Positions 20,199-22,378 of a DNA stretch of 64,000 bases are shown one piece after another. Under the pieces are notes generated by a model. The model ran no database searches. It worked only from the letters and a program-made list of their open reading frames with translations, and was not told the origin of the DNA. Source of the stretch: an uncultured Nitrososphaeraceae archaeon (lineage in GTDB: Archaea > Thermoproteota > Nitrososphaeria > Nitrososphaerales > Nitrososphaeraceae); NCBI GenBank assembly GCA_963837175.1, contig CAWIMJ010000046.1, positions 32,001-96,000 of the forward strand, given 5' to 3'. Position numbers and translations under genes: made by a program. Position 1 is the stretch's first letter. The number at the start of each line of letters is the position of its first letter.

Positions 20199-20755
20199 AT
20201 AGGACGTATATCAATGAGTTTTAGATATAATTGTTACACTAATTTTTGTTATTCTATTTGCTAAAAATATACCTTCTTACATTACGCACTTTTCTAGCTG
20301 ACTGTAACATTCATCTATCAACAAAGCATTCTGTATAATTTAATACATCGTAAAACTTCAATTTCTTCCACAAGATCTATTGGGAATAAAACCAAAAATG
20401 TATGATCTTCTGCTTATATTATAAAGTAAATTTATTATCAGTTTATTAGAAAAACAGGTTCTGTTAACTTGACGGGTTACCTATCAACGTGTTAACTATC
20501 GGGTGATACATAATTTGTCTGATAAATATTCATGTATTTCTTCAGGTTCTCCCATGATTTCTTTATATCTTCATTCCTTGGTTTCGTTATGGCATATTTT
20601 CCACTAAAAGGAATTCCTCGATATCATAAACGAATGTAATCGATTAACCTACCGTAGCGGGCTTCTTTTCCTCTACCATATTACTACTTGTCTCCCCATT
20701 GTTATAGCTCTTTCCCTCTCTTTGTTGAAGCCTAAATAGCAACGAAAACCGTATA

Positions 20756-20873
20756 TTCATCGTGCTGGGCAATAGAATTCCTCCCGGCAGTGCTCCAACT
20801 AGGCTGGTAAACTGGACTGATGCTGCGCACGTCAGCGAGGGAATTCCTCTGTTTCGCCAACAACGGAAATGAA
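20756..20873 (+). ncRNA. Candidate structured RNA (multi-branch hairpin, possible pseudoknot)
   Basis: Locally GC-rich. Nested pairings TTCAT/ATGAA, AATAG/CTGTT, GAATTCC/GGAATTC, CCGGC/GCTGG and CTGATG/CGTCAG. Three stems need G-U pairs that form only on the + strand. Confidence 0.5.
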
Positions 20874-20944
20874 CAAAATAAGATACATAAATCAAGCTAA
20901 TAAATTTTTTGTACGGGAACAAAAAGTGTGGTGAAAGCTGATTA

Positions 20945-21031
20945 ATGGCAAGCGATGATTGTAAGACACGAATTCGCAGCCATTGTCTTGGGAGGACGGA
21001 CTGCAATTGTAGCCTTCTTAAAGTGGACTAA
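20945..21031 (+). CDS. Putative 28-aa Cys-rich peptide inside the IS6-type element
   Basis: MASDDCKTRIRSHCLGRTDCNCSLLKVD; SD-like GGTGA at 20930-20934. Confidence 0.35.
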   Translation: MASDDCKTRIRSHCLGRTDCNCSLLKVD

Positions 21032-21250
21032 CAAATGTTCTTGTTAAACCTGACAAGACATCCATCTTTTCGTTGTTTCTTTCACCGATATCAAAACAGA
21101 TTCTTCAGCCATAAACTTTTGTTTAACGATAGTAGGAGGTTTATCATCACCCAACAGTTAACGCTTGCTTCTATCGCCTGTCAAGGTAACAGAACCGAAA
21201 AACAATATATATTTATTAGTACAATTAAATCTAGGTGAGAATGATTTTCT

Positions 21251-22378
21251 CTGGCTCACAACCATTCTTATGAAAAATCAGCTGAAGAGATAACTTTCTC
21301 GGGCTACTCACAAAACTATTGTGTATGCTTTGTAAATATAATGGATTCTATAAAAATTACTAGTGAAATTACTAATGCTAATAAAATTAGCAAGTATTAT
21401 TCAATATTTCTTAATACACTGTCTGCAATAGCCAAAAACTTCAATGCAAAAACAATCAAGATTACAAGCGACGGGTTAATATTTTACTTCCCAGAAACAC
21501 ATGATTCTAGCAATAAATCTGCTTTCAAAGATGTAATAGAATGTTGTCTTACCATGATAGCAGCAAATATAATTATCAACAAGGAGTTATATAAAGAGAA
21601 ACTGCCGTCCGTTAGTTACAGGATAAGTGCGGATTATGGTAGAGTAGAGCTTGCGAAGTCTGCAACTTCACAAAATGATGATTTATTTGGTCCTACCATG
21701 AACGTTTGTGCAAAGATAAACTGTAAGGCAAAGACAAACGGTATAGTAATTGGTTGCAGTCTATACCGCATGATAAAATCGTTTTCGTTCTCTGTTGAGG
21801 ATTACCAATTCGAAGAAATTGGTGAATATTCAGTCGGCTTTGAACAACATTATACGTTATATTCTGTTATAAATAGTAATAGAACCAACAAGAATGTATC
21901 AAATCAAAAAAAACGGATTTCCAAGATGAAATATCCTCAATTACACTCGTCACAGATGAAGAGAGAATCATTATTATCCATTGAACCTGAAAATCAACAG
22001 TATAAGTATTCAGCAAATATCATGCTTGTAGATGACGAGGAAGACTTGCTAATTACTTACAGGTCCTTCCTAGAGGATGAAGACTACAAGGTTGAATCGT
22101 TTACAGATTCTGAGACAGCACTAAATCACTTTGCAGAGACGAATGTATATGATTACAATTTAGTAATTTTGGATATAAGAATGCCTGGTATAAATGGACT
22201 CCAACTCTATTGTAAATTAAAAGCAATGAATATATCCATTAAGGTGTTGTTTGTATCCGCGCTTGATGCAATTGATGAGATCTTGAGTGTATTACCTGAC
22301 GTAGATCCCAAAGATATTATTAGAAAGCCAGTCCAAAGGGAACACTTTGTTAGTGCTATCAAAAGGGCACTCGGCTAG
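21251..22378 (+). CDS. Class III nucleotide cyclase-like domain fused to a C-terminal response regulator receiver
   Basis: The frame is open upstream of ATG 21341 (EITFSGYSQNYCVCFVNIMDS) to CTG 21251. Cyclase motifs YRISADYG and DLFGPTMNVCAKIN; REC motifs LVDDE, LDIRMPGING, SA and KP. Confidence 0.85.
   Translation: MAHNHSYEKSAEEITFSGYSQNYCVCFVNIMDSIKITSEITNANKISKYYSIFLNTLSAIAKNFNAKTIKITSDGLIFYFPETHDSSNKSAFKDVIECCLTMIAANIIINKELYKEKLPSVSYRISADYGRVELAKSATSQNDDLFGPTMNVCAKINCKAKTNGIVIGCSLYRMIKSFSFSVEDYQFEEIGEYSVGFEQHYTLYSVINSNRTNKNVSNQKKRISKMKYPQLHSSQMKRESLLSIEPENQQYKYSANIMLVDDEEDLLITYRSFLEDEDYKVESFTDSETALNHFAETNVYDYNLVILDIRMPGINGLQLYCKLKAMNISIKVLFVSALDAIDEILSVLPDVDPKDIIRKPVQREHFVSAIKRALG

Follow-up and report, generated by a model that had tools for sequence, protein, structure and literature searches.

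The locus studied here raises the question of what kind of mobile element came to lie between the divergent csl4 (PF14382) and cyclase-REC (PF00211 and PF00072) genes of a soil archaeon of the Nitrososphaeraceae. The window, i.e. the whole stretch of DNA analysed, is 64,000 nucleotides long and belongs to a genome of 3.8 Mb that is 91% complete. A preliminary description had placed at this site an intact, cargo-carrying, non-autonomous IS6-type transposon with bipartite ends and an 8-bp target site duplication (TSD), and both the location and the non-autonomous IS6-type insertion were borne out by the ends, the duplication and the empty sites in related genomes. The element occupies positions 20,457-21,196 (740 bp), and its 51-bp arms, i.e. 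the terminal inverted repeats (TIRs) at 20,457-20,507 (plus strand) and 21,146-21,196 (minus strand), form the longest inverted repeat within 19.5-22.5 kb; the left arm was also recovered with a family profile. The TIRs are indeed bipartite, since left and right are identical at 18 of 20 positions in the outer block and 15 of 17 in the inner block, and at 4 of 14 in the spacer. In each arm a GTTAAC-centred motif occurs twice, at a spacing of 28 bp, and the two copies likely represent two transposase-binding sites. The TSD, GAAAAACA, is perfect and located at 20,449-20,456 and 21,197-21,204. The tips carry GG and the cTGTt motif, a feature of the IS6 family (PMC7986276), and the claimed resemblance of the outer ends to IS6 was confirmed by the host genome itself, where most of the 71 end-like sites are short IS6 ends with the same outer 14 bp as the element.

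The preliminary description had advised a search for empty sites, and these were found in all six other genomes of the genus, where csl4 and the cyclase gene are adjacent, 84-90% identical and without the element. The spacers of these genus mates can be aligned through the insertion point, where they have a single A-rich target copy that is not letter-identical to GAAAAACA. Contigs of an independent soil assembly (run X9) span both junctions, and an empty-site joint was absent from four DNA runs of the same species (three of them partly covered), so that the insertion has perhaps reached fixation in the species; it occurs in several independent soil samples. On its right side the element abuts a 15-bp AT run (21,205-21,219, plus strand) that is left intact, is kept in the empty sites and is the likely TATA box of the cyclase-REC gene. 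In all likelihood, the element thus landed at the edge of this TATA box, with the strict TATA motif, which lies within the AT run, at offset 1 from the duplication and not at offset 5. Because the element abuts the likely TATA box, an effect on cyclase-REC expression is possible, and the insertion parts the core promoter of a signalling gene from its upstream region. The contigs that four RNA runs yielded for the flanking genes stem mostly from relatives, and none of them covers the element. The cyclase-REC frame (21,241-21,345) is open from 21,245; no in-frame ATG precedes 21,341, and the CTG at 21,251 may serve as the start. On the other side, at 20,390-20,392, about 55 bp left of the element, a part of about 250 bp of the csl4-cyclase spacer that G003 and G004 possess is absent.

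To which elements do these ends belong? The absence of related ends elsewhere had been named beforehand as a ground for rejecting the assignment, and the same ends proved to be present in relatives of the host genome. In two of these (G025 and G028), the ends delimit elements of 2.8 kb that have 8-bp duplications and encode proteins of 370-374 amino acids with a SWIM domain (PF04434) and a DDE_Tnp_IS240 domain (PF13610); in the parent-element proteins P0001 and P0002, PF13610 scored 57.7 and 63.8 bits (cut-off 27). A scan with the end pattern gave at least 131 stretches, mostly in Bathyarchaeia, Methanoregulaceae and Nitrososphaerota, and one in an Asgard archaeon. An exact 8-bp duplication was found in 17 of 30 paired end sets, and other lengths from 4 to 12 in none. 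There were 38 duplication-bounded elements, 36 of which measure 2,153-4,580 bp. The repeat spacing of the outer motif was 28 bp in 40 of 76 ends and 37 bp in 14, with a seed pattern that favours the 28-bp spacing, and the left/right identity of the TIRs across 18 elements ran 0.91, 0.63, 0.84 and then 0.31. Passenger genes of the family encode HNH and GmrSD nucleases, a methylase, proteasome-subunit-like proteins, a MazF-like toxin and AbrB-type proteins; the proteasome-subunit-like passengers (PF00227) occur in four elements (L031, L077, L088 and L107). Transposase relatives with an E value of 1e-30 or better were present in 77 of 238 genomes of the family (two flagged as unpublished, on which no conclusion here depends) and in none of the six genus mates, and the transposase query gave no match in viral contigs.

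In the sections of the IS6/IS26 surveys used here (PMC7986276, PMC6807381), published members have inverted repeats of 14-20 bp, the archaeal members among the table rows listed are about 700-780 bp long with transposases of 211-231 amino acids, and one passenger-carrying member is named, the tIS ISDsp3; the survey also covers archaeal clades, the long zinc-finger clades h and i, and two MITEs. What the elements found here have in common with this family is the GG tips with cTGTt, the 8-bp duplication and, in the parent transposase, the PF13610 DDE domain. They differ from the members described in those sections by two-part ends of 51-60 bp, a length of 2,153-4,580 bp, a SWIM transposase of 370-390 amino acids and routine passengers. 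Thus, the short inverted repeats of 14-20 bp are replaced by the 51-bp bipartite ends, and instead of about 700-890 bp with one short transposase gene the elements are longer and carry passengers. A further departure concerns the target, as in 17 of 35 elements a TATA-like hexamer starts at a distance of 5 bp from the duplication and in 13 at 7 bp (overlapping sets), and at any other offset in at most 3 of 35. Insertion upstream of promoters at a fixed distance is also described for p-MULT, TnGBS and ISLre2, which, in the part of that work used here, have Mutator-like transposases and target bacterial sigma-A promoters, whereas the transposase here is IS6-like and the targets are archaeal TATA boxes (PMC3942029). 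The copy in the window therefore points to a large archaeal IS6-like branch that departs, in its long two-part ends, SWIM finger, passengers and TATA-side insertion, from the published family picture to the extent covered above. A search of the open-access literature found no description of this family or of the RNA discussed below.

Several other arrangements were seen in the family. In L263, L275, L221, L226, L053, L104 and L243, elements are stacked end-to-end and separated by one target duplication. Genus mate G004 contains a 337-bp non-autonomous member with an 8-bp duplication (L018:1026-1362), and a box C/D-like motif lies upstream of the transposase in another element (L079:3760-3830).

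Within its own genome the element stands alone. The recommended check for further copies found none, and the check for an intact IS6 with matching TIRs likewise ended without a matching transposase in the host genome. There are 19 PF13610 matches in this genome, which, together with the good preservation of both TIRs and the duplication, would fit the original proposal of an intact mini-cassette that spreads RNA/peptide cargo and is mobilised by resident IS6 transposases; moreover, the RNA does have real homologues (see below). However, the inner TIR block was not seen in the short IS6 ends among the sites listed, and the only long-type transposase is 29% identical, does not have its N-terminus in frame and belongs to ends with other inner motifs, hence no partner was found in the genome. 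Furthermore, the element is single-copy, and its interior is collinear with a 2.5-kb parent and broken. Elsewhere in the genome lies a 2.9-kb relative of the family (G000:C50:39045-41966, corresponding to L344:546-3467), whose ends differ in their inner motifs; its transposase is broken, and its 8-bp duplication is near-perfect.

The interior was resolved by comparison with sister elements of the full layout, in which a TIR is followed by a leftward gene for a winged-helix protein (wHTH), a shared promoter, a tRNA-like RNA, the rightward transposase gene and the second TIR. L209 (2,546 bp, with an 8-bp duplication and a near-full transposase) has this full layout; L095 (1,612 bp) is itself deleted, and its wHTH is 40% identical to a protein of genus g9. 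Reaching into the left TIR, at 20,492-20,630 on the minus strand, about 45 codons of the 3' end of the wHTH passenger remain. The wHTH profile matches here at residues 198-232 only (hmmsearch, E 3e-14), behind a 1-nt deletion near 20,614, and the stub also matches A6 (E 4.8e-8). Element bases 65-171 match a chromosomal gene in nine genomes of genus g9 at 75-78% DNA identity, and the stop codon of the passenger falls inside the TIR in both this copy and L209. Then comes the remnant of a divergent promoter (20,631-20,776), AT-rich at the matching place in L209, L244 and L247, with a TATA-like TATATT, read by eye, at 20,752-20,757, about 25 bp upstream of the putative RNA start. The decayed tRNA-like RNA gene itself lies at 20,777-20,845 on the plus strand and is 69% identical to that of L209; its assignment is based on alignment, a covariance model and covariation. 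The surrounding stretch 20,765-20,875 aligns with the sequence upstream of the transposase in L209 (z 14.1) and L095 (z 6.2), with 0 of 100 shuffles reaching these scores in either case.

The preliminary description had found no transposase homology in the interior, and this has to be revised, as 20,877-20,966 (plus strand) aligns with the 5' end of the SWIM/zinc-ribbon/DDE transposase of sister L095 (z 6.1, 0/100 shuffles). About 20 codons are recognisable, the start codon is lost and a frameshift follows; against L209 the z score is 1.1, and profile searches with HMMs and nhmmer were silent on this stub. Profile searches found no DDE domain inside this copy, and the N-terminal stub alone is seen. 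A decayed transposase interior had been named as something that would speak against the proposal, and this turned out to be partly the case, the transposase stub being accompanied by the passenger stub and the RNA. What remains, 20,967-21,145, is decayed sequence with the tail of a Cys-rich ORF and an AGGAGGT stretch (21,124-21,140) that, by eye, resembles one directly 3' of the L209 transposase. The Cys-rich peptide (20,945-21,031) that had been considered cargo overlaps the transposase remnant, has no homologue among the loci and, like the other interior ORFs (0/7), no Pfam match. Two candidate readings of this part were discarded: 20,975-21,145 as an inverted DDE fragment reached a minus-strand z of 3.0 with 1 of 100 shuffles against one element and failed against 44 transposases, and KWTNKCSC as a decayed SWIM finger was not significant. 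The GC-rich segment described earlier is real, with 50-58% GC at 20,740-20,870 compared to 33% for the window, and it holds the RNA gene; that it is structured follows from its homologues and not from its own folding energy (z -0.22 to -1.0). On this segment, Rfam gave nothing but chance RUF1 matches.

After insertion, internal deletions would have removed most of both genes from this copy. It is hardly in doubt that the element derives from an IS6-like cargo transposon, and very probably it is an internally deleted, likely immobile copy of such an archaeal transposon with wHTH, transposase and RNA remnants. The term intact does not apply, given that the passenger gene is a frameshifted 3' stub, and neither does the term intact cargo transposon (tIS), which suits the parents. 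MITEs are amplified to several copies. The element resembles them in having both ends and no transposase, but differs in content and copy number, with gene remnants inside and a single copy. Thus, rather than a spreading cassette, it is what deletions have left of a longer element, present once and reduced to part of the passenger, a stub of the transposase and a decayed RNA: a fossil and an ordinary relic. A further relic, L353, has kept a C-terminal wHTH stub near its TIR.

This relic, however ordinary, led to a small RNA family. Six other elements from Nitrososphaerota (L209, L095, L247, L244, L243 and L266) carry a tRNA mimic between the divergent wHTH gene and the transposase. Together with the present copy, the seven RNAs measure 66-69 nt. 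They combine an acceptor stem of 7 bp and a T-arm with a very small D-arm and a long stem that ends in an anticodon-like loop of 7 nt. All 7 acceptor and 5 T-stem pairs are formed in five of the seven copies, with 6 of 7 acceptor pairs in this copy and 4 of 7 in G174. The D-arm has 3 bp and a 3-nt loop in four copies and is somewhat different in G729 and G929. The loop C-Y-NNN-R-A is kept in every copy, with the triplets GGU, GGU, CGU, CGU, GUC, GCU and ACU. Accordingly built, the RNA shows the 7-bp acceptor stem stacked on a 5-bp T-arm that is expected of a tRNA, and lacks the canonical D-arm and variable loop. None of the listed copies encodes CCA, and in intact copies the 3' end of the RNA lies about 25-40 nt upstream of the transposase start. 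The copy in the window combines an acceptor-like stem with a damaged mini D-arm, the loop CU-GGU-AA and a T-stem of 5/5 pairs. Its T-loop, CGCACGU, is degenerate, and those of L247 and L244 are the canonical UUCGAAU. Low-depth strain variants at 20,823 and 20,833 break two T-stem pairs, and one at 20,818 restores a pair. Judged by its sequence, this RNA copy looks dead, and the loss of T-loop and D-arm features and of T-stem pairs is one more argument against a mini-cassette with working cargo, a reading that, in view of the single copy, the missing partner and the peptide without homologue, we regard as very improbable.

The family was delineated with a covariance model, R1, built from this copy, L209 and L095. 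In 594 kb of loci, R1 found L247 (51 bits) and L244 (28 bits), both independent and both from Nitrosopumilaceae. A motif scan for the T-arm and acceptor stem, with 0 matches in reversed and shuffled controls, added L243 and L266, and model R2, for which neither was used, found them with 31 and 26 bits, respectively. As true tRNA-Pro genes reach 23 bits with R2, close to these two weakest homologues, location and architecture count for L243 and L266 no less than the score does. When five copies are compared, both bases vary in 13 of 23 pairs, compared to 6.5 in shuffles (0/500 reach 13) and 3-5 in slid controls, with the pairs counted in an alignment fitted to the proposed structure and drawn from a family of seven copies, two of them decayed. 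In L209 the cloverleaf-like fold is not the minimum-energy structure, and the pair probabilities of D-arm and T-arm are about 0.15. Rfam tRNA (RF00005) did not match the copies, and ARAGORN missed them in default mode and called three of the three tested in mitochondrial mode. Thus, as far as sequence comparison goes, this appears to be a small family of RNAs that escapes standard tRNA and Rfam searches and that is not present in the literature searched. In shape alone it resembles mascRNA/menRNA (RF01684), likewise a small tRNA mimic with an acceptor stem, a T-arm and a reduced D-arm, and one copy, the RNA of G729, scored 28.3 bits (E 0.03) against RF01684, below the gathering score of 42.5. 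mascRNA is a vertebrate lncRNA product.

In searches of more genomes, R1 found G174, G228 and G766 plus one chance match in 80 genomes, and missed G583 under strict filters; R2 found G766 only in 146 Nitrosopumilaceae genomes, and two weak matches, both ordinary tRNA-Pro, in 40 more archaeal genomes. A DNA search with the L209 RNA in 401 genomes of the phylum, performed without a positive control, gave no match, nor did exact-pattern scans of metagenome and viral contigs, with a three-copy pattern so strict that it would miss L244 and L247. Among 93 transposase 5' regions, six contained the fold, five with the wHTH gene and one with a different tRNA gene, and 60 more upstream regions returned the tRNA of L103 again and nothing else. 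In most other members the slot upstream of the transposase, inspected by eye, is AT-rich with a small divergent gene. The L103 tRNA gene (L103:3047-3150, minus strand, from Nitrosopumilus sp. OZ240211) has a GAA anticodon and lies directly upstream of the transposase. It has a long variable arm and a 14-nt intron, and it is unusual for a long-arm body to bear a Phe anticodon; the L103 element also bears a methylase and an HNH gene.

One explanation for the RNA family would be that host tRNA genes were captured and now decay inside transposons without a function, much as the near-canonical gene in the same slot of L103 (Rfam tRNA, 41 bits) and the decay of the copies in this element and L095 might suggest. 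We consider this improbable, as the odd build (tiny D-arm, long anticodon-like stem, no variable loop) is common to five copies from two families that form 7/7 and 5/5 pairs in divergent sequence, which random decay would not yield; the covariation weakens this explanation as well.

What, then, might the RNA do in intact parents? The acceptor/T-arm half of a tRNA is what RNase Z and RNase P recognise. A transposase of 370-390 amino acids would bind the two motif copies at each end and insert the element with a stagger of 8 bp, in many cases 5 bp away from a TATA box, so that the host core promoter stays whole. A single rightward transcript would begin at the RNA, about 25 bp past the TATA-like box, and read into the transposase gene. 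Guided by the acceptor/T-arm half, the host RNase Z would cleave directly behind the discriminator base. This cut would release a small tRNA mimic and at the same time define where the transposase mRNA begins, about 25-40 nt upstream of the transposase start. Transposase output would then depend on host tRNA processing, and the transposon would tie its own expression to it. Control of the divergent promoter would fall to the wHTH protein, whose slot is filled by AbrB or zinc-ribbon genes in other members. There is a precedent in Haloferax, where, in the part of the study considered here, tRNase Z cleaves a t-element that precedes the 5S rRNA (PMC4326828). In both cases an archaeal tRNA-like fold lies directly 5' of another RNA product; the RNA here differs from the t-element as described there in that it is part of a transposon, is followed by an mRNA and has retained an anticodon-like loop, and its cutting is predicted (PMC4326828). 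In view of this precedent and of the recognisable acceptor/T-arm half, we give processing by RNase Z an even chance of being the main role of the RNA.

The kept 7-nt anticodon-like loop is unnecessary for cutting by RNase Z, which hints at another role. The RNA of intact parents could act as a free mimic of tRNA that serves anticodon nucleases, synthetases or the wHTH protein as a decoy or partner, in which case wHTH and RNA would form a two-part passenger module in an element otherwise as described above, and processing would merely be the release route. The loop C-Y-NNN-R-A, kept in 7/7 copies with changing triplets, fits such a role, as do the defence-like passengers of other members (HNH, GmrSD, MazF-like, methylase). 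The RNA is, moreover, found only alongside the wHTH gene, which has the same slot and orientation in L095, L209, L243, L244, L247 and L266. None of the 93 transposase 5' regions has wHTH without the RNA, and no RNA was found beside wHTH genes that lack a nearby transposase. The exception is L355, in which wHTH is divergent from a distant (33%) transposase and no RNA was found. The RNA-bearing transposases are located on at least four branches of an 84-sequence tree (FastTree, with weak deep supports), so that wHTH and RNA seem to move as one unit between transposase lineages. Against a free mimic stand the many chromosomes that have the wHTH gene without the RNA, the absence of encoded CCA in the listed copies, and the wHTH protein itself. 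The latter is predicted to be about 250 amino acids long with a winged helix and a helical part, and no catalytic domain was recognised; its best Foldseek match has an E value of 0.007. No Pfam family scored above cut-off, with a weak Mrr_N match in 2 of 16 proteins and a DUF5343 cluster at 0.86 in the Atlas, and a PDB sequence match was not found. On balance, we think the free-mimic role less probable than processing by RNase Z. Equally tentative is the broader proposal that an undescribed tRNA-mimic family, whose D-arm is reduced and whose anticodon loop can be exchanged, forms with wHTH a host-matured module that moves between transposase lineages and either couples transposase expression to tRNA metabolism or decoys anticodon nucleases. 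If true, such a mimic module would give a prokaryotic transposon a novel means of sensing or buffering its host.

The wHTH gene also has a history outside transposons. In genera g9 and g2 it is a settled chromosomal gene with neither TIRs nor RNA (L181-L188 and L231-L240), and a wHTH query of metagenome contigs gave 281 candidates, none of which was confirmed. The stub in the window resembles the g9 copies more (about 70%) than it does the other transposon copies (about 43%), which suggests an exchange of wHTH between transposon and chromosome. Finally, a strong ribosome-binding-site-like stretch 3' of the transposase in L209 (L209:2640-2750) and L095 (L095:4800-4925) could pair with sequence about 100 nt downstream, with fold z scores for this stretch of 0.1 and -2.65, respectively. 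In L209 the pairing would enclose, by eye, a 20-codon Arg/Cys-rich ORF, a layout that resembles type I toxin mRNAs.
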